Below, in pieces: positions 6,215-36,167 of a DNA stretch of 64,000 nucleotides. The notes beneath the pieces were generated by a model that had not been told where the DNA came from, made no database searches, and saw only the letters and a program-made list of their open reading frames with translations. Both the position numbers and the translations under genes were made by a program. Source of the DNA: an uncultured Gammaproteobacteria bacterium (GTDB taxonomy: Bacteria > Patescibacteriota > Microgenomatia > Daviesbacterales > UBA10151); contig CAYLXC010000002.1 in the NCBI GenBank assembly GCA_964387865.1, positions 18,676 to 82,675 on the forward strand. Reading direction: 5' to 3'. How positions within the stretch are numbered: position 1 is the stretch's first letter; each line of letters starts with the position of its first letter.

Positions 6215-6420
6215 TTTATTGGTTAGTTTTAGGGATATTAATCGTTGCAGCTGCTTCTTTTAAAAAGAGAGCATCATTCTATCTTTCTTTAGCTTTTTAT
6301 CTTTTTATGGCTGGAGCAATACTTAGAATTATCGGTATAAATGATATAGCAGAGCTAATAATGAGGATAAGCCTTATAGGATGGTTAGTTGGACTAGGTC
6401 TATCTTTTAAGCAGTTGTGA
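6202..6420 (+). CDS. Small polytopic membrane protein (72 aa); partner of the family-A gene
   Basis: ATG overlaps the stop of 4013..6214 (ATGGAAAGCATGA). There are 2-3 TM helices. 'DIAELIMRISLIGWLVG' is similar to 'DIGEFIMRLSFIFLLVG' in the small protein at 41331. Confidence 0.4.
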   Translation: MESMIYWLVLGILIVAAASFKKRASFYLSLAFYLFMAGAILRIIGINDIAELIMRISLIGWLVGLGLSFKQL

Positions 6421-14631: not shown

Positions 14632-14683
14632 AATTCTAGTTCATAAAACTGAATATATCAAGTGTAGGTGATATACTAATACA
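14632..14683. promoter_or_regulatory. Divergent promoter region (transaldolase operon on -, heptose genes on +)
   Basis: 52-nt AT-rich spacer containing -10-like 'GATATACT' and 'GAATATAT' between divergent genes. Confidence 0.25.
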
Positions 14684-17628: not shown

Positions 17629-17721
17629 TATTTACATTTGCTGTTAGTAACAGTTATTATATGTGTCAAGTGCTCAAATGCAAGGATTATATCTTTGATT
17701 TTAAGTAATGCAATAATCATT

Positions 17722-19207: not shown

Positions 19208-19232
19208 TACTGTTACAATCTTCTTTGAGAAT

Positions 19233-20417: not shown

Positions 20418-21344
20418 ATGTCTGCCAAAAACATTCACACACTTCTGATTACCGGTTCAACTGGTTTGGTTGGATCAAGATTTGTTGAACTTTTTAAAAA
20501 CAATTTTTCAATCGTTACTATCGGAAGAAGTAATGTAGATAATCAGATAGATTTAACTTCCAAAGAAGAAGTATTCAGAACTATTCAATCATCTGATGCT
20601 GATGCTGTAATCAATTTTGCAGCTTACACTAATGTAGATGAAGCGGAAAAAGAAAAAGGAGATACAAAAGGAGAGGTATACACCATAAATACACTACTGC
20701 CATTTTGGCTTGCAAAAAGTTGCCAAACTTCCGGAAAGAAACTTTATCATATCTCGACCGATTATGTTTTTGATGGAAAACAAACGAATAGGTCCTACAC
20801 AGAAGAAGATATTCCTAAACCGGTTGACTGTTGGTATTCAATAACAAAATATGAAGGAGAAATTGGCGTTGCTAACGGTTTTAAAAAACAGGAAAATTTT
20901 TCAATTATTCGGATATCCTATCCATACAGCGGTGTTTATAAGAGAAAATTAGATGTTGCCAGAGCTATTATAGAAAGGTTGGTTAGGAAAGAGTCCTATT
21001 TTGGTATAACAGATCAGAAAGTAAAACCAACTAGTGTGGATGATATTGCAAATGCTTTAAATCTGCTGCTAAAAAAGAGGGTCTATGGTATATTTCATAT
21101 TGCAGGTAATTTTTCTCCAAATGAATACATTACTCCTTATGACTTTGCACTCAAAATTGCTGAAACTTTCGAATTGGATTCTTCGTTAATTAAGCCTATA
21201 ACCTTTTTAGAATTTTCAAAAGAAAGGATTACACCAAGGCCTCAACATACATGGCTTGATACTACAAAAATAGAATCGCTTGGTTTTAGTATTACTAATA
21301 CTAATCAAGCTCTAAATAGATTAAGACAACAATTTAACCACTAG
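20418..21344 (+). CDS. RmlD-like NAD(P)-dependent reductase/epimerase (dTDP-4-dehydrorhamnose reductase family SDR)
   Basis: 'LLITGSTGLVGSRFVEL' and 'YSITKYEGE' (YxxxK). About 300 aa. Paralog of 35274..36167. Confidence 0.6.
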   Translation: MSAKNIHTLLITGSTGLVGSRFVELFKNNFSIVTIGRSNVDNQIDLTSKEEVFRTIQSSDADAVINFAAYTNVDEAEKEKGDTKGEVYTINTLLPFWLAKSCQTSGKKLYHISTDYVFDGKQTNRSYTEEDIPKPVDCWYSITKYEGEIGVANGFKKQENFSIIRISYPYSGVYKRKLDVARAIIERLVRKESYFGITDQKVKPTSVDDIANALNLLLKKRVYGIFHIAGNFSPNEYITPYDFALKIAETFELDSSLIKPITFLEFSKERITPRPQHTWLDTTKIESLGFSITNTNQALNRLRQQFNH

Positions 21345-22077
21345 TAATTAAAAAATTTGCCTTTCTGATATTTAGGCGATGAAAGATATACTCTATGAGT
21401 AACCTTATATTTTCAATCCCATGTTTTATGGAACCAATAAGGTTAGGTGAGATAGCTTCTTTAGAGTACCTTTTTGTAACAGGTACCTCGGCAATTTTAA
21501 ATCCAAAGTAAACAGTTTGAATTATCAGCTGAGGATCAAAAAGATAACCATTACCATTTTTCATAAAAGGAATCGTTTTGAGTAGTTTCTTTGTATATCC
21601 TCTATATCCTGAATTAACTTCTATTAAATTTGTACCCAATACAAGATTAAAAAGTAGCGCAATTATCCTAAGTGATAATGATTTATAAACTGGTGTCTGA
21701 TTAATCCCGGTTGTTAAAAAACGCGATCCTAAGATTAGGTCCCCTTTGCCTTGCTTAAGTGCCCTTATAAACTTAGGTATTTCTCCACCATCATATTGTC
21801 CATCCGGATGCAACATTATGATATAATCCGCTTCCCTTTTTAAGCTTTCTGTATAGAGAGTTTTTTGATTGGCTCCATATCCTAAATTTCTTTTGTGAAC
21901 AATAGGTTTTATATCTAGACTTTTTATCACTTCAACAGTTCTATCTTTCGATCCATCATCAACTATAATGATCTCATCGACAAAAGACTTTGGAATTTTT
22001 ATATAAACATCCTTTAATGTCCTTTCCGAATTATAAGCAGGAATTACTACCAAAACTTTACCATCTCCGTCTTTCAT
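21334..22077 (-). CDS. GT2 polyprenyl-phosphate glycosyltransferase (DPM1/GtrB-like)
   Basis: 'VLVVIPAYNSERTL', 'EIIIVDDGSKDRT'. About 247 aa. Confidence 0.7.
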   Translation of the reverse strand: MKDGDGKVLVVIPAYNSERTLKDVYIKIPKSFVDEIIIVDDGSKDRTVEVIKSLDIKPIVHKRNLGYGANQKTLYTESLKREADYIIMLHPDGQYDGGEIPKFIRALKQGKGDLILGSRFLTTGINQTPVYKSLSLRIIALLFNLVLGTNLIEVNSGYRGYTKKLLKTIPFMKNGNGYLFDPQLIIQTVYFGFKIAEVPVTKRYSKEAISPNLIGSIKHGIENIRLLIEYIFHRLNIRKANFLITSG

Positions 22078-22130
22078 ATTTTAAATCACAAATGATAATA
22101 TCATAATAATGTCTGTTAACCAATTGACCC

Positions 22131-24002
22131 ATGAAGATAATTGCAGGTAGTTTCTTGATTGTTAAAATCTTTATTGTGATTTTGCTAGTATGGGCCATAC
22201 AAACCCTTTTTCTTCATGAGCTAGTTAATAACGGTATATCTGGAGACGACCTGGAATGGCTTTTCTATTTTCATGCATATAGAGGCGATCTTATTAGCCA
22301 GTTCCCTTTTATTTGGAATGATAGGACCATTTACATTGTACAAGAAATATATTATATGGGAATGCTGGAGGGTATTTTTGGCTTTTTAAATCTACCCGCT
22401 TTTCAACTGACCCATCTGTTATTTAAATCTCTGGCTACTTTATCATTATATTTCTTAATCTTCAGCTTGCTTAAAAACAGGCTTTTTGCTTTTTTAGCAG
22501 CATTCTTCTTTATTATTTCTTCCTCAACAACCGGGGTATTTGAACTAGTAGTGTATGGTACATGTTTCTTATCTATAAGCTTTATTTGTTTTTTCATTCT
22601 TTTTTATATCCAGTCTTTAAAAGATAGTAAAAAGATTTTACTAGCCTCACTATTTCTCTTTCTGGCACTTGTTCTATGTCCACCGAGAACTTTTCCTATC
22701 ATAGTAGTTCCTTTTGTTGTGGAATTAATTCGTTTGATTAGGAAATTTAGACCCTTTGTTTTTTTACGAAGACTATTAATTTTTTACTTTCTGCCATTTA
22801 CATTATTCGGGGGGGATGCAAGACATGTTACAGGGGGGTCATGGGTTGTTCATCTTTATGATTTTACAGCGGGCAATTATTATTCGATCACATACCCTCT
22901 TCAAGTACTCAGCTCTCTTTTTATTGATAAAAGCTTCCTGGAATATATTTTCGGCCAATGGAAGAATGTAAATTTAAATGTAGTTTTAGCATTACAGCTA
23001 CTCTTGCTTCCTTTCTCGATATTTCTGGGCTTAATCATAAAAACGAAGAAGCTCGGTATTTTCCTTGTTAAGATAACATTGTTAACTTTTCTCCTGCAAG
23101 CTATTCTGTATGTGCTTGGTTCCCTAAGCCATGATTTACCACCAGGGTTTGCTATTATACAAAAAGTAAATTTTAACACCATATCATTTTTACAAGCATC
23201 CCTGGGAGGATACCTCTTAATCTTTGGATTATTCTTAGGGTTTGAGTGCTGGCAGAATCAAAGGAATAATCATCTGATGAGGGTTTTAGTGGCAGCTTGG
23301 CTTTGGACAGTAATATCTTTAATTTTAATATGGTTTAGTGCTGGGGGAGTGCAGATAGCAGATCAAGTTGATCGAAGATATGTATTACTTACATCTTTAG
23401 GAGCTGTTGTTTTCACTGCTGGAATATTTACCTTAGCTATTGAAAGTTTACTGAAAATAAGAAATCGAGCTGCTAAAATATCATCACTTTTTCTAATATG
23501 TGTTGCCCTACTAACAATTACTTTTGGCAATTACAGATTTTTGGATCAATATTTTTATAAGAGAAATCAGGAGTTGGGTTTTGATTCTTCCTGGCAAAAA
23601 CTTATGTATCAACGGTTTCTAAACAAATTCGGAAAAGCTAACTTACATAAAGACGCCTTTATATACATAGATTTTAGTGGGAGTGAGGAGAAAGATAGAA
23701 TATTCTACACAAATTCAGTTGGAATTATTTATAAACTGATATATTATGAAGATGGTCACCTAATAAGGGATAACTGTAAGGCGGTAGTTCATGACCCCAG
23801 AGTTTTAAAGAAGTCTTATACTGTTGTCAATGGGGAAAAAGGTTTTATCTTTGATACCATCTGTGTCAATCCTGTTATAGGACAAGATGGTAAACCTCAT
23901 TACTATTCTTTGGATAATTTTTATGCTTATTCACTGCAAAATAGGGAATTTGTAGACATTAAGGAAAAAACTATAGCCGAGCTTGATCAAGCTGTACCTT
24001 AG
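22131..24002 (+). CDS. Family-B polytopic membrane protein (623 aa), GT-C-type glycosyltransferase candidate
   Basis: About 12-13 TM helices. First loop 'NGISGDDLEW' (acidic GT-C-like motif). C-terminal soluble region ends 'NFYAYSLQNREFVDIKEKTIAEL'. Confidence 0.5.
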   Translation: MKIIAGSFLIVKIFIVILLVWAIQTLFLHELVNNGISGDDLEWLFYFHAYRGDLISQFPFIWNDRTIYIVQEIYYMGMLEGIFGFLNLPAFQLTHLLFKSLATLSLYFLIFSLLKNRLFAFLAAFFFIISSSTTGVFELVVYGTCFLSISFICFFILFYIQSLKDSKKILLASLFLFLALVLCPPRTFPIIVVPFVVELIRLIRKFRPFVFLRRLLIFYFLPFTLFGGDARHVTGGSWVVHLYDFTAGNYYSITYPLQVLSSLFIDKSFLEYIFGQWKNVNLNVVLALQLLLLPFSIFLGLIIKTKKLGIFLVKITLLTFLLQAILYVLGSLSHDLPPGFAIIQKVNFNTISFLQASLGGYLLIFGLFLGFECWQNQRNNHLMRVLVAAWLWTVISLILIWFSAGGVQIADQVDRRYVLLTSLGAVVFTAGIFTLAIESLLKIRNRAAKISSLFLICVALLTITFGNYRFLDQYFYKRNQELGFDSSWQKLMYQRFLNKFGKANLHKDAFIYIDFSGSEEKDRIFYTNSVGIIYKLIYYEDGHLIRDNCKAVVHDPRVLKKSYTVVNGEKGFIFDTICVNPVIGQDGKPHYYSLDNFYAYSLQNREFVDIKEKTIAELDQAVP

Positions 24003-24026
24003 GCTAATTTGTTATTATAAAAGAAA

Positions 24027-25892
24027 ATGGGAAAAAATTTAGTCTTAATTGTGATCCTGATAATAATAGTTTTTGCTTCACAATTTATATTAGCTCGAAA
24101 ACAGCTTGATTATGGATTCTACAATGATGATTGGTATGTTCTAGGGTGGTATAAACAAGTTGTTGGAAATCCTATTTTGGATATGCCGAAAGCCTTCAAG
24201 GAGATTGGTCCTCACAACTTTGTTCATGCTTATTATATGGGGGTAATGTTTGATTTTTTTAAACTGAACTATCCTTACTACCATGTTATAAATACATTAC
24301 TTAAAGCTTTAGCTGTTTTAAGCTTTTTTCCTGTAGTTTATCTTCTGTTTAAGAGTAAATTCTTAGCCTTTTTAGCCACTTTTATTTTTGCAGTCCACTT
24401 CTCTCCATATGGAGTGATATACCATGTGATAGGAGGAGAAGGTTCTCTAGTTGTTATTTTTATGAATTTGTTTTTGGCAGTCTATATTTATTCTTCCCAA
24501 AAACATTTGCTTAACAATGTAAAAATTTTATTTCTACTACTTGCACTTCTTTTAACAACAGCTTCCTTTGAGATTACCAGGGCTTATCCGGTTTTATTAT
24601 TCTTGCCCTTTTTAGAATTTATAAATTTTTTTGTTAACAGAGCATCAACCAATGTTAAAGCAATACTCTTAAGACTTCTATTTCTCTATTCTCCATTCAT
24701 TTTCCTACTGGCTTACCATCCTTCAGCTCTAAACGAAATAAATTTTAACAAATTTATACGTATTATAGATTGGGGTAACTATCAACTAATCCTTACTATT
24801 TTTAGTTCATTTGGAAGTACTTTTGTTCCGGAAGGTCTGATAGATCAGTTAAATTTGTTTGCAAGAATAGGAGAGGGTGTTCTTTACAGGGATTTGGAAA
24901 CCTTTCTTACCTTCCTGATTTTTAGATTTTTGATAATCTCTATTCCGTTACTTATAGTCATAAGCTCATTGGTTGGTCTGAAGCCTAAATGGATTTTGAG
25001 AAGTTTATTTTTAATCATTAGTTTTTCGATCCTAGCCTTTTGGCTTGCTAATCATTGGTTGTATCTTGACCCTAAGCTTCGTGCCCCGGTTGATCCTTCA
25101 ACATATTTCATTCCAGCCTTAATTGGTTTGTTTGTATTTTCTTGCGCAATTTCATTTTTGATTGAGTGGTTTTATAATAGGGGAAATAATCTTCTTTTTT
25201 CGCTTGCCTTAGCCCCCATTTTTTCTCTTCTTTATACTTTTTTAACCTGGATTTTGGTTGATGATAATGCTATTTTTATGGGAGTTCATGCTTACTTGAA
25301 TATTCCTGCCATAGGATCCAGTTTATTTCTTGCGATACTGCTCTATTTGACCTTTCAAAAACTTTTATCTAATCAATCTAAAATAATTGGCAAATTTGTT
25401 GCCTCCTTCACTATCATTTATTTTTTATTTTTCATAACTTTCAGTGCACACCAGATTGATAAATTCTTCTCCTATTGGCTAAAAACTGGTTTTGCCGCTT
25501 CAGAACAGGAGCGTATGCATAATAGTTTTTGGAAGGAAGTTGGACTAGGTAAATCTGAAACTCAAGATCCAGTTCTGATTTACCACGATGGTTCACAAGA
25601 TAACGAAAATGGATACTTTTATGCTAATTCTTTTGTCTGGTCTATTCCAGCAATGTTGACTGTAGAAAAGGGTTTACCTTTTGATCCCGGCGGATATTGC
25701 AAAGCAGCGATGTCTTATAAAGATTTTGAAAACTTAAGAATTGAGGAAGTTAATGGTAAAAAAATGGTTGTTCAAAGTGGTTGTGGTAATGATCTTTATT
25801 ATTCCTTGGAAAACTTTTTTGCTTTTAAGATGATTAATCGGGATCTTGTTCCAATCAGATTGGAGGTTCTCAAACTGTTAGGAATTGAGTAA
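24027..25892 (+). CDS. Family-B polytopic membrane protein (621 aa), GT-C-type glycosyltransferase candidate
   Basis: 'YGFYNDDWYVLGW' first-loop motif, 'AYLNIPAIGSSLF' and C-terminal 'NFFAFKMINRDLVPIRLEVL'. Confidence 0.5.
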   Translation: MGKNLVLIVILIIIVFASQFILARKQLDYGFYNDDWYVLGWYKQVVGNPILDMPKAFKEIGPHNFVHAYYMGVMFDFFKLNYPYYHVINTLLKALAVLSFFPVVYLLFKSKFLAFLATFIFAVHFSPYGVIYHVIGGEGSLVVIFMNLFLAVYIYSSQKHLLNNVKILFLLLALLLTTASFEITRAYPVLLFLPFLEFINFFVNRASTNVKAILLRLLFLYSPFIFLLAYHPSALNEINFNKFIRIIDWGNYQLILTIFSSFGSTFVPEGLIDQLNLFARIGEGVLYRDLETFLTFLIFRFLIISIPLLIVISSLVGLKPKWILRSLFLIISFSILAFWLANHWLYLDPKLRAPVDPSTYFIPALIGLFVFSCAISFLIEWFYNRGNNLLFSLALAPIFSLLYTFLTWILVDDNAIFMGVHAYLNIPAIGSSLFLAILLYLTFQKLLSNQSKIIGKFVASFTIIYFLFFITFSAHQIDKFFSYWLKTGFAASEQERMHNSFWKEVGLGKSETQDPVLIYHDGSQDNENGYFYANSFVWSIPAMLTVEKGLPFDPGGYCKAAMSYKDFENLRIEEVNGKKMVVQSGCGNDLYYSLENFFAFKMINRDLVPIRLEVLKLLGIE

Positions 25893-25896
25893 CCAT

Positions 25897-27744
25897 TTAA
25901 AGTTGGGGTCTAATTTTTTCCATTATTTCTGACTTTATATTAATAATATCCTTATTTTGTAATTTGAATGCATAAAAATCTTTTAGAGGGAAAAACTTAT
26001 CTGCCCCACCAAAATCCTTATAGAAAAAGCCTTCTGTATTATTTGATAAACCATAGCTTGATATAAGTTTTTCTTCATCGTTAACCAAAAGAGCAACTGG
26101 GCAAGGTAATTTAGAATGGAATGGTCCATAAAGGTTGTACCACCTGTCAAATCTGTCAACCATAATAACGTTATGGGAGTATTCATTTTGCTGATCACCT
26201 TTTGTATATAAATAAAAAAATTTATTACAAGACTGCGGTTCTTCAATAAGTTTCCAAAATTGGTTTTTCATGCTGACTTGATCTGAGGCTCTCATCCCGC
26301 CGCTATCAAGAAACCTTTTTAGATATAATTGCATTTGGTCATTACTAAGGAAGAAATATGGTATTAATATTAAAAAAATAGCAGGAGCGAAATTTTTAAG
26401 AATTTTGTTGTTTTTGAATTTTGTATAAACATAAGTCAAAATAGAGGCAATCGCTGCCGAGATACCCATGCTGGGGAGGGTTGAATAACCATTTATTCCG
26501 AGCGGTATATAAACATGATCTTGTAGAATCCAGGTAAACAATATAGAAGTTAGCGCAAAAGACATTCCTAGAAGGTATAGTTTAAGGTATATATTCTGTT
26601 TATCATTTTGCCACTGTTTAAATATAAAGATTGTTAAAACAGTAATATAGATTCCAAATAGAGCAGCAGGAGTATAGGTTGTAGGGTCGTAATACTTTTT
26701 TATATCTGGGGGTAAATTTAAGGCATGGTCAATTATTAAAAAAACAATTAACTGCAGAATAAAATTTATAATGAAAACTAGAAAAAAAAATTTAAGCGGT
26801 TTTTTTGATAGAACTTTTGATAAAAAAAGCGTGAGAGATCCAAGAATTACCAAAGGACCACCAATAAAAAAGGGTATAAAACTTTCTAAATTCCAGGATG
26901 CGGAACTAAGAAACTTCAGCCCATCACCTACTAAGAAAAGACCACCTATTGTTGTAAAAGGAGTAAGGAATACTTGTAAATTTCCTAAGTATGCATTGCG
27001 TATATTTGCTACAAAGTTTCCATAGGGAGTTCCCTGGTTTCCCATGACAATAAGAAAGACAACGAAGGGTAAAAGAAATATTATGAGGGTTTTTGAGATC
27101 CATAAAAGATTAGAAAGCGATTTGTCTTTTAAATATATTATAGCCCCAAGAAAGATAATAAACATTAGGATTGGATACGCCCTTATCGGATTAATAAAAA
27201 AAGAAAAGAATAAGAATACAGAAGTTAGTATGGTCCATAAAATATTTTTGGGTCTTTTTTTATAAAGCAAGTAAAAGAAGATGAAAAAAATGTTCATTGC
27301 AGGCATTAATAAATAATCTTGCGTTCTGGATACCATTTCAAATGATCCAATAGAACCATAATGTATAGAAAATATAAGTGCGGAGATAAAAGCTAGTAAA
27401 CGAGTGTTAAATACAACTTGAATTAAGATATAGAAACTTATAATAGATAAAATTTTAAAAATTAAGCTGGTTATCTGATATGCTTCGTAATTAAAGCCAA
27501 ATAAGCTGAAAAGAATACCACTATAATAAATATGAGGGGCATGATAGGGTCCTGCATCCTGCCATACCTGATTAAATTTTAAAAAGGGGTTTGATCCAAG
27601 ACTCGAAAAATCAGAGAAGAACCAAACATCATCTGGAGAAAAACCAAATTCCAAATGGGGTTTTAGGATTAAGCTTTGGGAAAAACTTATAAGCAGAATA
27701 AATATTAATAAAAAAAGCCATTCCTTCTTAAAATAAGATATCAT
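25897..27744 (-). CDS. Family-B polytopic membrane protein (615 aa), GT-C-type glycosyltransferase candidate (inverted copy)
   Basis: 'FGFSPDDVWFFSDF', C-terminal 'DFYAFKLQNKDIINIKSEIMEK'. Confidence 0.5.
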   Translation of the reverse strand: MISYFKKEWLFLLIFILLISFSQSLILKPHLEFGFSPDDVWFFSDFSSLGSNPFLKFNQVWQDAGPYHAPHIYYSGILFSLFGFNYEAYQITSLIFKILSIISFYILIQVVFNTRLLAFISALIFSIHYGSIGSFEMVSRTQDYLLMPAMNIFFIFFYLLYKKRPKNILWTILTSVFLFFSFFINPIRAYPILMFIIFLGAIIYLKDKSLSNLLWISKTLIIFLLPFVVFLIVMGNQGTPYGNFVANIRNAYLGNLQVFLTPFTTIGGLFLVGDGLKFLSSASWNLESFIPFFIGGPLVILGSLTLFLSKVLSKKPLKFFFLVFIINFILQLIVFLIIDHALNLPPDIKKYYDPTTYTPAALFGIYITVLTIFIFKQWQNDKQNIYLKLYLLGMSFALTSILFTWILQDHVYIPLGINGYSTLPSMGISAAIASILTYVYTKFKNNKILKNFAPAIFLILIPYFFLSNDQMQLYLKRFLDSGGMRASDQVSMKNQFWKLIEEPQSCNKFFYLYTKGDQQNEYSHNVIMVDRFDRWYNLYGPFHSKLPCPVALLVNDEEKLISSYGLSNNTEGFFYKDFGGADKFFPLKDFYAFKLQNKDIINIKSEIMEKIRPQL

Positions 27745-27777
27745 TTTAGTTTGTAACTGATATATAATAAGGCAAAA
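27745..27777. promoter_or_regulatory. Compact divergent promoter between two family-B genes
   Basis: A 33-nt spacer containing 'TGATATATAAT' (extended -10-like TATAAT) about 10 nt upstream of the GTG start at 27778. Confidence 0.3.
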
Positions 27778-29709
27778 GTGAGAGGTTTACTACTAGATAA
27801 AAAAAATTTACTTACACTTCTTTTTTTACTAATCCTCACGGTTACTTTGAATAGTCTAATTTTTTCAAACCAGTTAAATTATGGATTTAGAGATGTAGAT
27901 TGGCAAGTGCTTTATTATTTTAAGCTTTTCGGTAATTTATCTTTAGATCATTTGCTAGAAAATATTAAAGTTTTGGGGGTTTATATTTCTGAATCATACT
28001 ATGTTGGATTACTTGAGAAACTCTTTGGATTAAACTTTATAAAGCTTCATCAGGTCAGCCATTTTTTCAAAGTCGCTGCCGCAATAAGTGTTTATATACT
28101 TATATTAATAGTTTTCAAAAAGAGGCTACTGGCATTTATTACAAGTTTAATATACACAATTTCTTATACTCATGCAGGAGTTCTTTTTCAATTAGCATCC
28201 GGGGTAATTTTTTTAACCACAATACTCATGAATTCATTTTTAATTACATATTATTACAGTTTATTAGGAAAAGACATTATAAAACACTCTATCATTGCTG
28301 GTGTTTTGTTAATTTCTGCACTAATCTTAAAGCCTGAAAGGATGTATCCGTTGATAGCTTTAATCCTACTTGTAGAAATTTTTTTAGTTGTGCGAGGCAA
28401 TTTTTTAAAAAGTTTACAAATTTCATGTTTAAAGCGAACCGTTACCATTTTTTTGCCGCTTATTTTTCTTGTTGTTTTCTATATATTCCTACTTAAAGAT
28501 ATTGCCCCTTCAGGGTTTACTCCCAATCAATTTTTTGAAAGTACAAGTATAAGGATTGATAGTGTTACCGGTGGGAATTGGCAGCTTTTAATATATCCTT
28601 TTGCATCATTTGGAAGTATATTTTTATATGAGGATTACTGGAAGCTTCTGGGCATGTTAAATTTTCAAAATTTCACAGCATATCTTTCTTCCTTAATTTT
28701 TGGTCCAGTTTTTCGGTTGGGAGTAGTCGCATTTATTCTCATTTCAGTAATTTTTAGAAAATCTTTCAAATTAACATTAATTACCATGGTTTCGGTTTTT
28801 ATTTTCGGGCTAATAATCTTTTGGTTAAACACTAATTGGCAGCATATAAATATGTCGGTACGTATCCACTTTGATCCAAATTTAATGGCTCAACCTGCCA
28901 TATTTGGTTTCTATATTTTTATACTGAACCTTATATTTTTTATTAAGTGGATCAGAAGTAATGATCCGATGCTCCTTCCCCTTATTGTTGGTTTTTCCTT
29001 TGCGATTTTATTTACCCTGCTTAGCTGGATTCCCTCTGACATACAGCTAATATTTATGGGGCCTCAAAGATATTTAAGCATACCCTCAATCGGCACAAGT
29101 CTTTTTATCTCTGGACTGCTGGTGATAGTTTTCAATAGATTACAAGAAGTAAAATTTACTAAACAGTTTGCCTGGATAATTTTTTTAATTTTAGCCCCTT
29201 TAATTTTTGTAAATTTCCAGGTTGCCAATAAATTTTTTGATTACGAACTGACGTTTGCCGGATTGATAGGAAGCGATCAAATAAGAATGAAAAACAAGTT
29301 TCGTTATCTTGCAAAAGATCTTAGCCAGGAAGACAAATCACTATTTTATTTTGATGAAACTGCGGATAAAGATAATGGATACTTTGACGAAGGTACCACA
29401 ATGGCAGGATTTGAATTTTGGACTAGGATCAACAGTGACGGCACTTTAAACACTTTTCCGGAGCCAGGAATGTTGAGGACCAATGTTCAATGTATTGAAC
29501 ATACTCATCAAAGTTGTTTAAAAATGTTGCATAAAGGATTAGCAGAAGAAAATGGCGAGAAAGGAATTTGGTATAAAGATGTAATTAGAGCTAAACAAGG
29601 ACTACGTTTTTATAAACTTACTAATTTTTACGCATTTAGATTTATCAATAAAGATATAGTGGATATTAGGAAAGAAGTTTTAGAAGAGCTAACTGCTACA
29701 AATCACTAA
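27778..29709 (+). CDS. Family-B polytopic membrane protein (643 aa), GT-C-type glycosyltransferase candidate
   Basis: GTG start. 'YGFRDVDWQVLYYF', 'RYLSIPSIGTSLF', C-terminal 'NFYAFRFINKDIVDIRKEVLEEL'. Confidence 0.5.
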   Translation: MRGLLLDKKNLLTLLFLLILTVTLNSLIFSNQLNYGFRDVDWQVLYYFKLFGNLSLDHLLENIKVLGVYISESYYVGLLEKLFGLNFIKLHQVSHFFKVAAAISVYILILIVFKKRLLAFITSLIYTISYTHAGVLFQLASGVIFLTTILMNSFLITYYYSLLGKDIIKHSIIAGVLLISALILKPERMYPLIALILLVEIFLVVRGNFLKSLQISCLKRTVTIFLPLIFLVVFYIFLLKDIAPSGFTPNQFFESTSIRIDSVTGGNWQLLIYPFASFGSIFLYEDYWKLLGMLNFQNFTAYLSSLIFGPVFRLGVVAFILISVIFRKSFKLTLITMVSVFIFGLIIFWLNTNWQHINMSVRIHFDPNLMAQPAIFGFYIFILNLIFFIKWIRSNDPMLLPLIVGFSFAILFTLLSWIPSDIQLIFMGPQRYLSIPSIGTSLFISGLLVIVFNRLQEVKFTKQFAWIIFLILAPLIFVNFQVANKFFDYELTFAGLIGSDQIRMKNKFRYLAKDLSQEDKSLFYFDETADKDNGYFDEGTTMAGFEFWTRINSDGTLNTFPEPGMLRTNVQCIEHTHQSCLKMLHKGLAEENGEKGIWYKDVIRAKQGLRFYKLTNFYAFRFINKDIVDIRKEVLEELTATNH

Positions 29710-29726
29710 ATATTTGTGGTATCATC

Positions 29727-31088
29727 ATGGAGTTTAAAAGAGAAATGCCAAAGAAAACTTTAAATGCTTTTTATGATTTGGTTATAGTAGGAGGCCTTGG
29801 TCATGTAGGTCTTCCATTAGGTATTGCATTTGCAGAAAAAGGACTTAAAGTTTGCCTTTATGATATTGATAAGAGTAAAGGTGAAATGGTCAAAAAAGGT
29901 AGTATACCTTTTATAGAATATGGTGCACAAGAAATTTTGGAAAAAGTATTAAAGGCAGGAACCCTTACAGTTTCCTATGATATTAAAGATATATCAAAGG
30001 CTAAATATGTAATTGTAACTATTGGTACTCCAGTGGATGAACACCTTACTCCAAAAACAAGAGCTTTTTTGGAATTTTTTGAAAATATTCGAGATTATTT
30101 AAACCCTAATCAAATAATAATTATTCGAAGTACAGTTTATCCTAATACCTGTCAACAGCTGCTAAGGATGCTAGGAAATGGTAAGCAGTGGCATATAGCA
30201 TATTGTCCAGAACGGATTACCGAGGGATATGCTATTAAAGAGTTAAAAGAACTGCCACAAATTGTAGCAGGTTTGAGTGAGCATGCAATAAATAATGCTG
30301 CAGCATTATTTAGTACAATTTCCACAAAAATTATAAAAACTGCAATGGGAGAGGCGGAATTGGTTAAATTATTTTCAAATGCTTGGAGATATATTCATTT
30401 CGCCTTGGCAAATCAATTTTATATGATCTCTTATAGATTTGGAGTTGATTATGAAAGAGTTCGTTGGGCGATGAAAGAAGGTTATGAAAGAGCAGCCACC
30501 TTGCCAGTTGCAGGTTTCGCCGCAGGACCATGCCTTTTAAAAGACACCATGCAGCTTGTGGCATTTGATAGCAATAATTTTCTTTTGGGACATGCGGCAA
30601 TGATGATTAATGAAGGCTTACCAAATTTTATTGTTGAGGATCTTCGCAAAAGATATGATTTACAGAAAACTAAAGTGGGAATTTTAGGCATGGCTTTTAA
30701 AGCGGATGTAGATGATATAAGAGACTCCTTATCATATAAGTTAGGAAAAATTCTTAGATTTCACGGTGCCCAGGTTTATTACTGTGATGAATATGTCAAA
30801 AATCCTACATTTTCATCTAAAGAAAAACTAATCAAAGAATGCGATGTGATAATTATAGGAGTTCCACACTCTGCCTATAAAAGACTTGTTATGCCAGAAA
30901 AAGTAGAAGTTGTAGATTTATGGGGTGTTACTGCTGGAGGTAGGCGTACAATCCCAAAGGGCTATATAACTTCTGAATATAGAGCTATTGATTCTTTTGG
31001 TCAAACTAGTGCTAATCAATATGCGGAAGGTTCTACTTTTCAACTCGCAGTCAGAATGAAAAGGTCAACTAAATCAACAAGTAAGTGA
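29727..31088 (+). CDS. Nucleotide-sugar dehydrogenase (UDP-glucose/GDP-mannose 6-dehydrogenase family)
   Basis: 'FYDLVIVGGLGHVGLPLGIAFAEKGLKVCLYDID' NAD-binding region and the catalytic-region 'FAAGPCLLKD' (GGSCFPKD-like). Confidence 0.75.
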   Translation: MEFKREMPKKTLNAFYDLVIVGGLGHVGLPLGIAFAEKGLKVCLYDIDKSKGEMVKKGSIPFIEYGAQEILEKVLKAGTLTVSYDIKDISKAKYVIVTIGTPVDEHLTPKTRAFLEFFENIRDYLNPNQIIIIRSTVYPNTCQQLLRMLGNGKQWHIAYCPERITEGYAIKELKELPQIVAGLSEHAINNAAALFSTISTKIIKTAMGEAELVKLFSNAWRYIHFALANQFYMISYRFGVDYERVRWAMKEGYERAATLPVAGFAAGPCLLKDTMQLVAFDSNNFLLGHAAMMINEGLPNFIVEDLRKRYDLQKTKVGILGMAFKADVDDIRDSLSYKLGKILRFHGAQVYYCDEYVKNPTFSSKEKLIKECDVIIIGVPHSAYKRLVMPEKVEVVDLWGVTAGGRRTIPKGYITSEYRAIDSFGQTSANQYAEGSTFQLAVRMKRSTKSTSK

Positions 31089-32089
31089 AAATACCTCAGG
31101 TAATGAAAAAAAGATTTCTGGTTACAGGTGGGGCGGGATTTATTGGCAGTGCCTTAGTAAGGGTTTTGGTGAATGATGGCAAAAGCGTTAGAGTATTGGA
31201 TAATGAGTTCCGTGGAGAAGTAGATAGATTGAAGGATATTAGGGATAAATTTGAAATGATAAATGGAGATATCAGAGATCCTAAATTAGTTGTGAAGGTT
31301 TGTCGAGGTATAGATAGTGTTATTCATCTTGCCTATATTAACGGTACCCAGTTTTTCTATACAAAACCTGAGTTGGTACTTGAGGTTGGAGTTAAAGGGA
31401 TAGTTAATATTTTGGACGGGTGTATAAAAAATAATGTAGGTGAGTTATTTCTAGCTTCAACTTCAGAAGTTTATCAAACCCCAAAGATTATTCCTACTCC
31501 TGAAACAGTTCCCATGGTTATTCCGGATCCACTAAATCCCAGATATTCTTATGGTGGGGGGAAAATAATTAGTGAGCTGATGGCTATAAATTATGGACGA
31601 AAATATTTTAAACGTGCTGTAATTTTTAGACCGCATAATGTTTATGGTCCTGATATGGGTTGGGAACATGTTGTACCTCAACTTATCTTAAGTATTAAAA
31701 ATTTAATAGAAAGGAATAAAAAAAGTAATACTATCCATTTACCAATTCAAGGATCAGGAGATGAGACAAGAGCCTTTATTTATATAGATGATTTTCTTGA
31801 GGGACTTAAACTTGTAATAGATAAGGGTGAACATTTGGGAATTTATCATATTGGTACCATGGATGAAGTATCAATTAAAGAACTTGCAAAACAAATAGGT
31901 TACCATTTTGGTAGAAAGATTATAGTATTGCCAGGAGAATTGACAAAAGGAAGTACCAAACGTCGTTGTCCGGATATTAGTAAACTAAAAAAGTTAGGGT
32001 TTAAACCGAAAGTTTCACTTAAAGAGGGTTTACAGGGGACAGTGAAATGGTATAATGCTTTCGCCCATTTACAACCTAAATATGAGTAA
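31085..32089 (+). CDS. NAD-dependent epimerase/dehydratase (UDP-glucuronate decarboxylase/4-epimerase-like extended SDR)
   Basis: 'FLVTGGAGFIGSALVRVL' and 'YSYGGGKIISE' (YxxxK). The GTG at 31085 overlaps the upstream stop (GTGA); an alternative ATG lies at 31103. Confidence 0.75.
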   Translation: MKIPQVMKKRFLVTGGAGFIGSALVRVLVNDGKSVRVLDNEFRGEVDRLKDIRDKFEMINGDIRDPKLVVKVCRGIDSVIHLAYINGTQFFYTKPELVLEVGVKGIVNILDGCIKNNVGELFLASTSEVYQTPKIIPTPETVPMVIPDPLNPRYSYGGGKIISELMAINYGRKYFKRAVIFRPHNVYGPDMGWEHVVPQLILSIKNLIERNKKSNTIHLPIQGSGDETRAFIYIDDFLEGLKLVIDKGEHLGIYHIGTMDEVSIKELAKQIGYHFGRKIIVLPGELTKGSTKRRCPDISKLKKLGFKPKVSLKEGLQGTVKWYNAFAHLQPKYE

Positions 32090-33356
32090 AGGTAAGAAAA
32101 AACTGGCTTTTGGAACCGGGAAAAGTATAGTGGTAGAAAATTGCCAAGTCTGTAACAACCCTAATTTAGAATCGATACTATTTTTAGGTTACTTACCTTC
32201 GGTAAATCAGATGTATCCAATAGGATCGAGACCCAAAGAGCAACCGAGTTACCCTGCCGAACTTCTTCATTGTACAAAGTGTCATTTGGTTCAACTGGGC
32301 TTAATAGTTGATCCAAAAATTATTTTTCCGAAAGAATATCCATATACCTCTGGAACAACCAAAATTCTAAGAGATAATTTTGCCGAACTTTCTTTAGAAG
32401 CTAAAAAGATTTTAGATTTAAAGTCAGATGATTTGGTGATTGATATAGGGTCAAATGACGGTACACTTTTAAATAACTTCAAAGATGATGTTAGAGTACT
32501 GGGAATAACCCCTGAAGAAATTGGTCAACTTGCCATTGAAAAGGGAATACCAACAATTTTGGACTATTTTACATCCCGTACAGTGAAGAAAGTCAAGAAG
32601 AAATATGGCAAGGCCAAGCTTGTAACAGCTGCTAATGTATTTGCTCATATAGAAGATGTAAGTGTGGTTTTGGAAAATATTTTAAATCTCCTAAAACCAG
32701 ATGGGGTGTTTATTTCGGAATCGCATTATCTTTATTCACTAATTAAATTTGTTCAATATGATACTATCTACCATGAACATTTAAGATATTACTCACTGGC
32801 TTCCCTTAAATATATTTTAAATATGCATGGACTGGAAGTTTTTCATGCAAAACAAATTCCTACTCATGGAGGATCAATCAGAGTTTATGCCGCAAGAAAG
32901 GGTCTATATCCTGTTAAGGATTCTGTAAACAAGCTACTTCAAAAAGAAAAGCCATATGTAACAAACAAAAAAAGTTTATTAAAATTTAAGGAGAATGTTG
33001 TCTTATCAAAACTTGAACTTCACTCCTTACTTTGGGATCTGAAGAGAAAGGGGAAAAAGATATATGGCATTTCTGCCCCGTCCAGAGCCAGCACTTTAAT
33101 AAATTATGTTGGGTTGGACGATGACATAATAGATTGCATTTTAGAAATTAAAGGATCATATAAAATAGGAAATTACATACCTGGAACTCTTATTCCTATT
33201 GTGGAAGAGAGCAGCTTATTTGAGCAGCAACCTGACTATGCTTTGCTTTTATCTTGGCATATTGCTAAAGAATTGATGCCAAAACTTAAACAAAAAGGAT
33301 TTAAAGGAGACTTCATAGTTCCTCTCCCCAGGCCTTTGATTATAAAAGGCTTTTGA
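32082..33356 (+). CDS. Zn-ribbon-containing SAM-dependent (C-)methyltransferase, NDP-sugar C-methyltransferase-like
   Basis: 'CQVCNNPNLESILFLGYLPSVNQ...CTKCHLVQL' N-terminal zinc-binding domain, 'VIDIGSNDGTLLNNF' motif I and a roughly 150-aa C-terminal extension. The ATG at 32082 overlaps the upstream stop (ATGAGTAA); the ORF track start is 32055. Confidence 0.55.
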   Translation: MSKGKKKLAFGTGKSIVVENCQVCNNPNLESILFLGYLPSVNQMYPIGSRPKEQPSYPAELLHCTKCHLVQLGLIVDPKIIFPKEYPYTSGTTKILRDNFAELSLEAKKILDLKSDDLVIDIGSNDGTLLNNFKDDVRVLGITPEEIGQLAIEKGIPTILDYFTSRTVKKVKKKYGKAKLVTAANVFAHIEDVSVVLENILNLLKPDGVFISESHYLYSLIKFVQYDTIYHEHLRYYSLASLKYILNMHGLEVFHAKQIPTHGGSIRVYAARKGLYPVKDSVNKLLQKEKPYVTNKKSLLKFKENVVLSKLELHSLLWDLKRKGKKIYGISAPSRASTLINYVGLDDDIIDCILEIKGSYKIGNYIPGTLIPIVEESSLFEQQPDYALLLSWHIAKELMPKLKQKGFKGDFIVPLPRPLIIKGF

Positions 33357-35247
33357 GTCCTAGAGTTTGCATAATCTCATCTCTTATATCATATAGATCT
33401 CTATTTTTAAACCTAAATGCGTAAAAGTTTTCTGGTTTATAGAAAACACCACTAAAGAGAAATCCTTTGATACCATCCTTTTCCACTATTGCCTCCTTTA
33501 GCTTTTCTGGACAGACTTTCTCATTTCCGCCGCAAAGAAAATAAGTTCTTAAAAGTAGAGGAGTAAGTTCTGGCTTTAAGACTCTATCTTCCTGAAACAT
33601 CATCCAGAAATTGAAACCTGCCATAATTATTGTCTCATTAAAATAGCTATTATTATGGTCTTGTGATTCATCAAAATAAAAAACTGAGGGTTCAGTCAAA
33701 CTAAAATTTTTAAGGTATGACTTTAGTTTTCCCTTCATTCTAATATGTTCAGATGCCTTGGTTCCTGCCACGTTTAATTCATAGTCAAAGTAATTAGCTA
33801 TAGACTTACTATAAATTACAAACATAAGAAGAGGTAGTAAAAAAACAGCTAATGCAAAAGGCCTAGTGAAATTTTTTGGATATAACTTTTCATAAATTAA
33901 GACAAAAGCAGTTGCAATAAGAAGACTTACCCCTATAGCTGGTATAGTAAGGTAGCGGTGTATACCTACAAATACTAAAGCTATATCAGCGGGTAACCAT
34001 GTAATAAATATGAAAAGGAATGCCATTGCAGGACCCATAAATAAACAAAGGGTAAGATTATCCTTCATTTTTCTATCAATCCATTCAAGGAAAAAAGCGC
34101 ATGCTAAAGAAAGAACAAACATCCCGACTAAAGCATTGGGCATTACAAAACTTGGGTCAAAATATATCCTTGAAGAAGGATCAATACCTAACCGACGGGT
34201 AGCAATATAGAAGGAAGCTAGAAAAAGAGTTATGAGTATGGTCAATGTTACGAGTATAAACTTACGAGGGTTTTTAGATAAAAGATAACCTGAAATTAAA
34301 ATAATATTGCCAAAAATAAATAAAGGCCCCCCTAACAAGAATTTTAAATAACCAGTTAAATTATCTAAATTAATTACGCCTAGAGGTAAAGGATATTCTT
34401 TTGGTAGAAACATACTTCCTAAAGAAGCAAATGGTGTGAAAAGTAGGTGTGAATTTCCTTCAAATATTTTTTGGAAAAGCCCCATGCTGTTTCCTATAAA
34501 AAAAGGAATCATGTCGCTTTGAATATTTGGCCTAATAAATATTAGAAGAATTACTGGGGTAAAAAGTAGTAATAATCTTTTTGCCCCTAAAACAATAGAG
34601 GATTTGGAGAATTTTTGACTGCAAATATAGAGAAACTCACCTATAATTACAAGCGGCATTAGGGGATACATTCTCTCTGTTGCCAGAAAAAAGGCGAGAT
34701 AAAAGGTGAGTATGACAGAAATTAGCAATCTCCAATCTGTTCTTTTTTTTTGGGCAAGATACCAATATATCCAAAGAAATATATTCATAAATGTAATTCC
34801 GAGATAATTTATGGTAGTCATTACCGTATAGAGAGCTGCCACAGTTGTAAAAGAATAAGCATAGATTAATGTTCCAAGTGTGGCGATTAATTTTCGTTTG
34901 GTGATTATGTAAAATAAAGGAAAGGCAGTAATAGTTGAAAGAAACTTTAAAATATAAGCTACTATATTATATTGGTAGAAGTCTAAACCAAAAAAATATT
35001 CCTGAATACCTAAATAATAATATTGTGTTGCATAGACTCCGCTTCTATTCCACATGTTTAAAAAACTTTCAAGTGAAAAGGGATTTTTTAGATGTTTAAA
35101 TTGCAATAACCCCCCCCAATCTATATCAGCAAAAGCGTAGCTTAGGTGAGGCTTGAGCATAAAATATTGTATCAGGGCAATTATCAAAGCTGTAAATAAA
35201 AACAACCAAATACTTGAATGGGTTTTAAGACTATTTAACATACGCAA
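33340..35247 (-). CDS. Family-B polytopic membrane protein (635 aa), GT-C-type glycosyltransferase candidate
   Basis: 'YAFADIDWGGLLQF', 'RYLTIPAIGVSLL', C-terminal 'NFYAFRFKNRDLYDIRDEIMQTL'. Confidence 0.5.
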   Translation of the reverse strand: MRMLNSLKTHSSIWLFLFTALIIALIQYFMLKPHLSYAFADIDWGGLLQFKHLKNPFSLESFLNMWNRSGVYATQYYYLGIQEYFFGLDFYQYNIVAYILKFLSTITAFPLFYIITKRKLIATLGTLIYAYSFTTVAALYTVMTTINYLGITFMNIFLWIYWYLAQKKRTDWRLLISVILTFYLAFFLATERMYPLMPLVIIGEFLYICSQKFSKSSIVLGAKRLLLLFTPVILLIFIRPNIQSDMIPFFIGNSMGLFQKIFEGNSHLLFTPFASLGSMFLPKEYPLPLGVINLDNLTGYLKFLLGGPLFIFGNIILISGYLLSKNPRKFILVTLTILITLFLASFYIATRRLGIDPSSRIYFDPSFVMPNALVGMFVLSLACAFFLEWIDRKMKDNLTLCLFMGPAMAFLFIFITWLPADIALVFVGIHRYLTIPAIGVSLLIATAFVLIYEKLYPKNFTRPFALAVFLLPLLMFVIYSKSIANYFDYELNVAGTKASEHIRMKGKLKSYLKNFSLTEPSVFYFDESQDHNNSYFNETIIMAGFNFWMMFQEDRVLKPELTPLLLRTYFLCGGNEKVCPEKLKEAIVEKDGIKGFLFSGVFYKPENFYAFRFKNRDLYDIRDEIMQTLGLKSLL

Positions 35248-35273: not shown

Positions 35274-36167
35274 ATGATTAGAAAAGATAAAGATAAAAGG
35301 ATTTTACTTTTTGGAGGGAGTGGCTTAGTTGGCTCAAGGATTATAAAGCTCCTTAATAATCGTTTCCAAATAATTGCCCCCCCACATATGAAAGTGGATG
35401 TTACCCAAAGAGCCCAAGTAGATAAAATCATTGAACAGGTTTTGCCAGATCATATAATTTATGCTGTGGGTTTAACAAGTGTGGATAAAGCGGAAGAGAA
35501 TTCTAAATTGGCTTATTTATTAAACACAAAGGCACCCACTATGGTGGCCGAAAAGGCTAGTCAACTTCACATTCCAATACTTTATTTCTCAACAGATGCT
35601 GTTTTTGATGGAACAAAAAGCATCAGTCCTTATGAGGAAAGCGATAAGACTAACCCTATCTCAATGTATGGTAAATCAAAGCTTTTGGGTGAGCAAATGG
35701 TTCTGGCCCTTTCTGACAAAAATTGTGTAGTAAGAATTATTACGGTTTACTCACACGTCACAACTGAGAAAAGAGGCTTTGTTCAAGCTGTACTTGAGGC
35801 TTTATCAAAAGGAGAAAAATTTCAAGGAATTACAGATCAAATAATCAATCCGATCTATGTTGATGATATAGTAAAGGCCATATATCTTTTGATTAATAGT
35901 AAAAGCTTTGGCATATATCATTTAGGTGCAACAGATTATATTACAAACTATAATTTTATTAGGAAACTAGCCAAACACCTTAGTTTGGATGAGAAGCTGA
36001 TAGAAGGGATAACCTTTAAGGAATTTTTTAAAAATAAATTGGCAAAGAGAACCAAATATTGTTGGCTAGATACTTCTCTTTTCAGAAAAGAATTTGGTGA
36101 AAACGTCCTTCATACTGTGGATGAAAGCATCATGCTTTTTAAGAAAAATTTAAAGAGGCCATCTTGA
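35274..36167 (+). CDS. RmlD-like NAD(P)-dependent reductase/epimerase (paralog of 20418..21344)
   Basis: 'ILLFGGSGLVGSRIIKLL' and 'YGKSKLLGE' (YxxxK). 297 aa. Confidence 0.6.
   Translation: MIRKDKDKRILLFGGSGLVGSRIIKLLNNRFQIIAPPHMKVDVTQRAQVDKIIEQVLPDHIIYAVGLTSVDKAEENSKLAYLLNTKAPTMVAEKASQLHIPILYFSTDAVFDGTKSISPYEESDKTNPISMYGKSKLLGEQMVLALSDKNCVVRIITVYSHVTTEKRGFVQAVLEALSKGEKFQGITDQIINPIYVDDIVKAIYLLINSKSFGIYHLGATDYITNYNFIRKLAKHLSLDEKLIEGITFKEFFKNKLAKRTKYCWLDTSLFRKEFGENVLHTVDESIMLFKKNLKRPS

Follow-up and report, generated by a model that had tools for sequence, protein, structure and literature searches.

Glycosylation on the extracytoplasmic side of the membrane is carried out by three-component systems, such as GtrA/GtrB/Gtr* and CsbB/GtcA/YfhO, and polyprenyl-monophosphate sugars also serve as donors for the GT-C enzymes ArnT (GT83) and PMT/PMT_2 (GT39-like). 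In the recently described GT136 system, Citrobacter youngae ORF12 combines 11 TM helices with an Ig-like, beta-rich CBM and depends on the key residues R349 and Y350 in a late outside loop and on an Asp near TM1; the synthase of this system is a PRPP-dependent PPPRS, beside which an SDR enzyme, ORF13, is encoded (Kelly et al., 2024; PMC11127046).

The window analyzed here, that is, the whole 64 kb stretch of DNA, comes from a CPR bacterium and is devoted to glycan synthesis, with at least 14 GT-C-type enzymes that include five AftD-like proteins, three PMT_2 proteins and six members (B1 to B6) of a family denoted B, which sit within a large surface-sugar gene cluster. As in the three-component systems, a cytoplasmic polyprenyl-phosphate-sugar synthase (in this case, a candidate) is combined with a GT-C protein that carries an extra C-terminal outside domain, but the locus contains five to six GT-C paralogs instead of one, and no YfhO match was detected in Pfam scans. 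The GT136 system is resembled in the presence of an SDR enzyme beside the synthase (cf. ORF13) and of an Asp near TM1 together with R431/Y432, which recall the Asp and R349/Y350 of GT136. However, when the two are compared by description, the B family differs in having 13 TM helices and an alpha/beta domain without a CBM match, and the synthase candidate is of the GT2 type rather than a PRPP-dependent PPPRS. B1 to B6 are probably integral-membrane glycosyltransferases of the GT-C fold, belong to an unannotated family and function by the mechanism proposed below.

Six diverged paralogs

All five family B ORFs of the initial annotation, 615-643 aa in length, were recovered with the same coordinates and strands, but the count of five has to be raised to six given that a shorter member of the family was overlooked:

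22131..24002, plus strand: B1, family member of 623 aa, the most divergent copy
24027..25892, plus strand: B2, family member of 621 aa
25897..27744, minus strand: B3, family member of 615 aa, inverted
27778..29709, plus strand: B4, family member of 643 aa, the copy used for the AF2 model
33340..35247, minus strand: B5, family member of 635 aa counted from a TTG start, inverted
6400..7968, minus strand: B6, the sixth, shorter member, 522 aa (family HMM E-value 4.3e-85)

The first four copies indeed adjoin one another, with the third inverted and with intergenic gaps of 24, 4 and 33 bp. The start of B5 is uncertain: the TTG-started sequence is absent from the protein collection, and translation may instead begin at an ATG two codons downstream. 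The match of B6 to the family HMM consists of two segments (HMM positions 7-275 and 361-621), so that this protein is short of the equivalent of roughly two TM helices (about 85 profile positions).

The homology of the paralogs is far above chance, with full-length pairwise blastp E-values ranging from 1e-5 (B1/B5) to 1e-111 (B4/B5). Orthologues of individual copies are found at related loci: those of B2 (57-58% identity) are located at the corresponding point of the array in both L005 and L006, where the orthologues of B3 (56% identity) are likewise inverted; L006 additionally contains an inverted B5 orthologue (64% identity) after the same UGDH-epimerase-C-methyltransferase block, and L005 an orthologue of B6 (50% identity). 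The representative P0139 from another genome shows 60% identity to B1. The six copies are old, deeply diverged paralogs of one unannotated family, whereas a recent duplication had been envisaged initially; that interpretation is partly supported, with the GT-C fold agreeing with the structural comparison described below.

Fold, topology and conserved residues

The AF2 model of B4 has 13 TM helices, in agreement with the earlier estimate of 12-13. The TM region (approximately residues 8-493) is followed by an outside alpha/beta domain of about 150 aa (residues 494-643); the topology is N-in, C-out, with 16 K/R in the short inside loops versus 4 in the short outside loops, and the first outside loop (residues 35-86) contains two juxtamembrane helices. 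In the Foldseek search that had been proposed along with the annotation, solved GT-C enzymes rank above any other fold; sequence identity to the solved ArnT/PMT-type structures is 8-9%. The proteins could alternatively be viewed as transporters or flippases (MFS, MATE or a lipid-linked-sugar flippase) and not as enzymes, considering the 12-13 TM helices and the MFS and MATE chains that Foldseek lists at E-values of 0.06-1; this possibility is effectively refuted and appears extremely improbable.

The acidic motifs GISGDDLEW, YNDDWYV, FSPDDVWF, FRDVDWQV and FADIDWGG are all located immediately after the first hydrophobic helix, as originally observed, and in the family as a whole the motif G-[FL]-x-x-[DE]-D-W directly after TM1 is nearly invariant. 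Within it, D41 (B4 numbering here and below) is found in 121 of 129 members, including all five paralogs B1-B5, and position 40 is D or E in most. The nearly invariant set, which is placed on or towards the outer side, further includes K/R98 in TM2 (126/129), R/K188 at the outer start of TM6 and Y/W432 in the loop before TM12 (each in all 129 members), and GN..P in the loop after TM7. An NFYAF-type motif is present near the C-terminus of all five ORFs (NFYAY, NFFAF, DFYAF, NFYAF and NFYAF), in accord with the initial description. By contrast, the mid-protein motif RYL[ST]IP[AS]IG.SL holds strictly in ORF4 and ORF5 only, with looser versions in ORF2 (HAYLNIPAIGSSL), ORF3 (NGYSTLPSMGISA) and ORF1 (RRYVLLTSLGAVV), and the Tyr alone is universal across the five ORFs.

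Some copies deviate from the consensus. B1, the most divergent copy, keeps D40/D41, E200 and R220 along with K98, R188 and Y432; B3 lacks the E200/R220 pair (G/T in these positions); and in B6, GDFW replaces GDDW. Some copies, for example B6 and perhaps B3, could be GT-C-fold proteins that lack catalytic activity and form hetero-oligomers with active copies, for which the Pmt1-Pmt2 heterodimer and non-catalytic subunits such as PIG-U provide precedents. However, D41, K98, R188 and Y432 are retained in every copy from B1 to B5, and B6 retains the first Asp, R188 and Y432, which makes such a role unlikely.

Relationships with known GT-C families

Scans of B1-B5 against Pfam and NCBIfam at E <= 1 yielded no match, and no sequence in the PDB was matched at E <= 10 by profiles built from 5 and 41 sequences. 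For 41 + 9 aligned relatives, Pfam and NCBIfam produced only scattered noise at E <= 10, with the exception of PMT_2, which is weakly matched by two of the nine distant members (23.7 bits in TM2-TM6 for the better of the two, P0220, where the cut-off is 26.1). The PMT, PMT_2 and ArnT models (PF02366, PF13231) matched neither B1-B5 nor the 41 relatives at E-values up to 10. An hhalign comparison of the 129-sequence family profile with the profile of the PMT_2 proteins of the window (E = 0.003, probability 10%) aligned residues 31-178 with residues 22-165, placing the DD motif one residue off the PMT_2 'LDE'. This alignment and the P0220 score hint at a weak link in sequence to GT-C enzymes of the ArnT/PMT kind; with the single PMT_2 ORF at 54783, the family profile showed no relation. 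The B family also differs from PMT in the lack of MIR domains, and from both ArnT and PMT in the unrelated C-terminal alpha/beta domain with the FYAF motif. With regard to ArnT, the source organism is, to our knowledge, not known to make lipid A.

No sequence relation to the mycobacterial arabinofuranosyltransferases (AftA, AftB, AftD, EmbA-C) was detected: hhalign of the family profile with the AftD-like ORFs of the window at 37850 and 41816 gave probabilities below 1%, and the PF11847/Emb profiles had no Pfam match in the paralogs. Unlike in AftD and Emb, the C-terminal domain of the B family is alpha/beta, not a beta-sandwich, and lacks a CBM; compared with Emb and AftD, the members are also much smaller, and the phylum and the envelope differ as well.

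Two further classes of enzymes that act on polyprenyl-PP-linked glycans have to be considered. The B family proteins could be oligosaccharyltransferases or O-oligosaccharyltransferases that, like PglB/AglB/STT3, detach a completed glycan as a whole from polyprenyl-PP and transfer it to proteins, for example S-layer proteins or pilins. This reading is improbable and was rejected because the WWDxG motif (regular expression W[WYF]DxG) is found in 0 of the 129 family members, the STT3 sequence profile does not match, and the C-terminal fold is unrelated to those of STT3, PglB and AglB; moreover, in contrast to these GT66 enzymes, TM12 is preceded by a short loop. A function like that of Wzy, WaaL or the ECA polymerase, in which glycan repeat units linked to polyprenyl-PP are polymerized or ligated, would be in keeping with polytopic proteins that are encoded in a surface-glycan locus with Wzx and, like many Wzy proteins, unannotated, but there is neither a Wzy_C profile match nor a WaaL/Wzy-like fold, and this candidate, also rejected, is highly unlikely.

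The B family includes approximately 1,640 representatives at 50% identity clustering, for which the source names seen all read 'hypothetical protein', and no description of it was found in the literature on Patescibacteria/CPR and GT-C enzymes. The named members so far all belong to Patescibacteria of the Microgenomates/Daviesbacteria type, a range judged mainly from source names; a genome scan with closer sequences gave five loci.

Gene neighborhoods and the GT2 fusion

The genes that surround the paralogs include the following:

17638..18444, plus strand: small GT2, 268 aa, the closest relative in the window of the GT2 half of P0171
19191..21344, plus strand: RfbH-like DegT enzyme and RmlD-like reductase, upstream of the GT2/B1 pair
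21334..22077, minus strand: small GT2, 247 aa, in divergent orientation to B1 (PF00535, E = 6e-20)
29727..33356, plus strand: UDP-sugar dehydrogenase-like, epimerase/dehydratase and C-methyltransferase genes, between B4 and B5
35274..36167, plus strand: second RmlD-like SDR (RmlD2), paired with the GT2 at 36139..36885
36139..36885, minus strand: small GT2 (GT2c), 248 aa, near B5 (PF00535, E = 1e-27)

Judging from their sequences, the GT2s at 21334..22077 and 36139..36885, which flank the array, are candidate polyprenyl-phosphate-sugar synthases. In NCBIfam, the former comes closest to PpgS, AglJ and a Dol-P-hexose transferase, and the latter to ArnC (PRK10714) and PgfS, all under the cut-offs; the neighboring small GT2s score far under the NCBIfam equivalog thresholds (e.g., 77 vs 370 bits). 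The RfbH-like DegT enzyme and the RmlD-like reductase presumably make or modify a sugar upstream of GT2/B1.

Several of these associations are conserved. The DegT/RmlD pair is syntenic in L001 (83% and 71% identity), which keeps the block DegT-RmlD-GT2(minus strand)-family member, and in L006 the RmlD2-GT2c pair moves as one unit, with the GT2c orthologue (70% identity) adjoining B4. The block consisting of B4, UGDH, epimerase and C-methyltransferase is kept in L006, and L005 contains these genes again, with two others inserted after UGDH. A family member adjoining a small GT2 and an RmlD-like SDR is encountered again in L001, L006, L007 and L008. Furthermore, in P0171, a GT2 (PF00535, residues 12-172) is fused to a B family domain (residues 243-855), an arrangement that is shared by two independent contigs, each from a different sample, and topologically fits an N-in TM1; residues 1-245 of this protein are similar to the GT2 at 17638..18444 (blastp E = 9e-11). 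The fusion supports a functional link between the GT2 and the B family GT-C proteins.

No GtrA- or SMR-type protein that could serve as a small dedicated flippase, and no MATE flippase, was detected by Pfam among the window ORFs scanned. The window also encodes two unassigned membrane ORFs of 112-113 aa and a Wzx-like MOP protein at 48208; an Rfam scan of it detected no RNA elements.

Proposed mechanism

Most likely, the B family acts outside the membrane, where it would attach sugars delivered on a lipid carrier to a glycan or protein of the cell surface. The adjacent GT2s, the P0171 fusion and the conserved outer-side K/R/Y residues suggest that the donor may be a lipid-phosphate-linked sugar on the extracytoplasmic face. 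Under the proposed scheme, the products of the neighboring dehydrogenase, epimerase, RfbH-like, RmlD-like and C-methyltransferase genes would make or tailor the donor sugar, which the small cytoplasmic GT2 encoded next door would transfer from the nucleotide sugar to polyprenyl phosphate. The lipid-linked monosaccharide would then be flipped across the membrane, where K98, R188 and Y432 of the GT-C enzyme could bind the donor phosphate and the loop residue D41 could activate the acceptor hydroxyl on the surface glycan or protein. By analogy with the Aft/Emb enzymes of mycobacterial arabinan synthesis, the diverged paralogs are most likely distinguished by the sugar they transfer, the linkage they form or the position on the acceptor. 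The product is predicted to include heptose, dideoxyhexose and sugars with C- or O-methyl groups.

A more speculative scenario, which taken as a whole is possible but rather doubtful, is that the B family, the five AftD-like and the three PMT_2 proteins form an extracytoplasmic line that builds a complex heteroglycan of the Microgenomates envelope sugar by sugar from polyprenyl-phosphate donors, as the CPR counterpart of mycobacterial arabinan synthesis. In this scenario, the B family would constitute a GT-C clade specific to CPR that merits its own CAZy family, and the novel C-terminal FYAF domain would read the acceptor.

Implications for CPR envelopes

Orphan GT-C families are expected to exist, and new ones are still being founded, as exemplified by GT136 in 2024, so for glycobiologists the B family is interesting rather than startling. 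As a new branch, it is about as distant from the STT3, PMT, ArnT and ALG enzymes as these are from one another. CPR bacteria possess genomes of about 1 Mb and a hardly characterized envelope biochemistry, and their cell surface mediates attachment to host cells. A family that is unrecognized by any annotation library gains a name as GT-C glycosyltransferases, and with this assignment a candidate active site consisting of D41, K98, R188 and Y432 becomes available for a substantial part of the CPR 'dark matter'. The assignment also suggests that extracytoplasmic glycan building driven by lipid monophosphates is one of the major activities of these bacteria.

A six-member family of divergent paralogs

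Between positions 22131 and 35247, the window encompasses five intact ORFs of 615-643 aa (B1 to B5), with exactly the coordinates and strands of the initial annotation. A sixth member, B6, extends the originally proposed count of five, all five of which are real.

22131, +, B1
24027, +, B2
25897-27744, -, B3
27778-29709, +, B4 (643 aa)
33340, -, B5
6400-7968, -, B6 (522 aa)

Pairwise, B1-B5 align over their full length with 21-35% identity and blastp E-values of 1e-5 to 1e-111, and their homology is therefore real. All the first-loop strings quoted for these ORFs are present, as is the NFYAF-type C-terminal motif; the mid-protein motif is strict in B4 and B5 only, and not in the other three. 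B6 was detected with an HMM built from 105 family members (E 4e-85). About 85 profile positions are missing from it, equivalent to some two transmembrane (TM) helices, and its GDFW has lost the second Asp that almost all other members keep. Its orthologue in a Patescibacteria MAG (locus L005, 3311-4933, minus strand; 50% identical) reads GDSW. B6 may differ in its catalysis, or it may serve as a non-catalytic partner.

The G+C content of the window is 30-35% throughout, and the genes are extremely tightly packed on alternating strands at 21334-22131, 25892-25897 and 27744-27778: 53 bp lie between B1 and the family 2 glycosyltransferase (GT2) gene at 21334 (-), the convergent pair B2 and B3 is separated by 4 bp, and B3 and B4 start 33 bp from each other in opposite directions.

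Scans of B1-B5 against Pfam and NCBIfam (E <= 1) yielded no matches, nor did searches of PDB sequences with 5- or 41-sequence profiles, and the homologues, where named at source, are all 'hypothetical protein'. The sole sequence-level link, below threshold, is to PMT_2 (ArnT/PMT-like). PF13231 is matched by two of the nine members of a distant 'LFGDDWL' branch, the best being P0220 (23.7 bits vs the cut-off of 26.1, spanning TM2-TM6), and hhalign comparison of the family profile with that of the PMT_2 proteins of the window itself (E 0.003, probability 10%) gives an alignment over TM1-TM5 in which the DD motif lies one residue from the PMT_2 'LDE'. At the sequence level, this link is a lead rather than membership.

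Predicted structure and conserved residues

The AlphaFold2 model of B4 (41 sequences) is confident (pLDDT 91.1, pTM 0.90) and consists of 13 TM helices and, at the C-terminus, some 150 residues folded as an alpha/beta domain, with an N-in/C-out topology that is consistent with charge counts. The first outside loop comprises two helices, the outside loop after TM7 is long, and the loop before TM12 is short.

Conservation among 129 members (B4 numbering) involves D41 (121 members), part of a G-[FL]-x-x-[DE]-D-W motif that immediately follows TM1; K/R98 in TM2 (126); R188 at the outer start of TM6 (all, one as Lys); G266-N267...P274 in the outside loop after TM7; and Y432 in the loop before TM12 (all, one as Trp). 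By the model topology, D41, R188, the GN..P motif and Y432 are predicted to face the outside, with K98 placed in the outer half of TM2, and these residues would cluster in space. The pattern reported for ArnT and GT136 is an Asp after TM1 along with basic residues and Tyr that serve the lipid phosphate; in the recently founded GT136 family, D31, H106, R349 and Y350 matter by mutagenesis (PMC11127046).

E200 (TM6) and R220 (TM7) occur together in 113 of the 129 members. Among the eight members with a residue other than Glu at 200, the four with G, S, Q or I have no R/K at 220 either, and the remaining two Leu and two Asp variants retain Arg220; in B3 (G/T) and the closely related P0094, both are missing. 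This covariation points to a likely ion pair, buried close to the cytoplasmic face.

Genomic neighborhood and a natural fusion

The array is part of a glycan locus of very large size, in which the family genes are interspersed with small GT2 genes and with genes for an RfbH-like DegT enzyme, two RmlD-like SDRs, a UDP-sugar dehydrogenase (UGDH), an epimerase/dehydratase and a C-methyltransferase.

17638, small GT2
19191-20411, +, DegT-family protein
21334, -, small GT2
36139, -, small GT2
50982, small GT2, more distant from the array

Against NCBIfam, the small GT2s score best with polyprenyl-phosphate-sugar synthases (PpgS, AglJ, Dol-P-hexose transferase, ArnC, PgfS), in every case far short of the equivalog cut-off. 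The DegT-family protein best matches RfbH, CDP-4-keto-6-deoxyglucose 3-dehydrase (E 9e-96, 321 bits vs the cut-off of 423), which hints at a 3,6-dideoxyhexose; its gene is syntenic in comparison locus L001 (83% identical).

A small GT2 and an RmlD-like SDR adjoin a family member in L001, L006, L007 and L008, a neighborhood that mirrors the synthase-epimerase-GT-C logic of three-component systems. Furthermore, in P0171 (864 aa), a GT2 domain (PF00535, residues 12-172) is fused to the family domain (residues 243-855). The fusion is found on two independent metagenomic contigs from different samples (L010, 6001-8595; L011, 2855-5449), in both cases next to more polytopic genes of about 590-610 aa without a Pfam match, and a cytoplasmic GT2 ahead of an N-in TM1 is topologically sensible. 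Under the mechanism that we infer, the GT2 would put a tailored sugar on polyprenyl phosphate, the lipid-linked sugar would be flipped to the other membrane face, and the GT-C enzyme would pass the sugar to an extracytoplasmic acceptor.

Among the window ORFs scanned, none is recognisable as a flippase of the GtrA or SMR type; the sole candidates are the Wzx-like MOP protein encoded at 48208 and a pair of unassigned hydrophobic ORFs (112-113 aa) without a Pfam match, each directly after a large AftD-like gene (41310-41648 and 47880-48221, both +). These two could be the missing small lipid-linked-sugar flippases or membrane partners.

Other components of the glycan locus

8-1555, 4013-6214, 37850-41338, 41816-44455, 44468-47893, all +, AftD-like paralogs
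13834-17628, transaldolase, HAD phosphatase, nucleotidyltransferase, SIS isomerase and GHMP kinase (Pfam domains)
48208-49485, +, Wzx-like flippase (Polysacc_synt)
52679-54055, 54783-56222, 62386-63849, all +, PMT_2 (PF13231) GT-C proteins
56200-57567, +, polytopic ORF, 455 aa, no Pfam match
60962-62383, +, Wzy_C/O-antigen-ligase-like protein

The AftD-like proteins form a second paralog family; they are large (up to 1162 aa) and polytopic, match PF11847 (AftD GT-C) weakly and each other with blastp E-values of 1e-5 to 1e-130. In the three that are large and full-length (37850, 41816 and 44468), about 10 N-terminal TM helices are accompanied by a big soluble region, and the C-terminus carries a TM anchor. 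Close homologues of the 54783 product in Daviesbacteria are annotated 'glycosyltransferase family 39 protein'. Together with the PMT_2 and family B genes, the window encodes at least 14 GT-C-type proteins, as well as eight methyltransferase-domain ORFs. Judging by domain content, 13834-17628 looks like a complete NDP-heptose pathway (GDP-D-glycero-D-manno-heptose type), which suggests that the glycan contains heptose. Given the flippase at 48208 and the ligase-like protein at 60962, the locus probably also runs a Wzx/Wzy-type pathway, the product of which could be decorated by the GT-C enzymes. An Rfam scan of the window (1-64000) detected no family at the gathering score, and the window seems to consist almost wholly of protein genes for glycan biosynthesis.

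Age of the array and range of the family

The initial annotation regarded the array as consistent with recent duplication and rearrangement. This reading is not supported, and recent duplication is refuted, given closer counterparts elsewhere and the conservation of gene order and strands in other genomes. B1-B5 share 60%, 49%, 53%, 63% and 65% identity with P0139, P0092, P0094, P0003 and P0081, respectively, well above the 21-35% among the co-resident copies. In L005, orthologues of B2(+), B3(-) and B4(+) retain order and strands (57%, 56% and 63% identity), with B6(-) upstream and the UGDH, epimerase and C-methyltransferase genes after B4, two other genes being inserted behind UGDH. L006, from a Daviesbacteria MAG, runs B2, two copies resembling B1, B3(-), RmlD-GT2(-), B4, UGDH-epimerase-C-methyltransferase and B5(-). 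It follows that the inversions are ancestral. L005 lacks B1 and B5, and L006 has B1 doubled and the RmlD-GT2 module relocated; the variation between genomes is thus one of module presence, absence and copy number. Such modular variation is typical of loci that diversify surface glycans.

Applied to 1.84 billion representatives, a profile search retrieved 1,640 proteins at E <= 1e-3, of which 355 reached E <= 1e-10 and 176 reached E <= 1e-30. By protein identity, the closest relatives of the window are MAGs that carry the labels Patescibacteria group, Candidatus Daviesbacteria and Microgenomates group. For the family, every taxon name seen is one of Patescibacteria, Microgenomates or Daviesbacteria, except for two MAG records titled 'uncultured Gammaproteobacteria' (CAZFYQ010000005.1 and CAZGFG010000001.1; L007, L008 and L009). 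These carry a CPR-type locus of family B, GT2, RmlD-like and AftD-like genes (40-64% identity to the window); because this gene content is the same as in CPR loci, the label is doubtful and probably wrong.

Implications

Fold, topology, motif conservation, context and the natural fusion all support both the GT-C interpretation and the suggestion of an undescribed clade. Family B very likely has the GT-C fold and belongs to the glycosyltransferase enzyme class; that its donors are polyprenyl-monophosphate sugars is reasonably probable. The acceptor may be a glycan or a protein, and any function beyond that of a GT-C-fold glycosyltransferase acting outside the membrane is inferred. Family B is a new sequence family inside a well-known superfamily, not a new kind of system, and it is of interest both to the biology of the CPR envelope and to the classification of GT-C enzymes.
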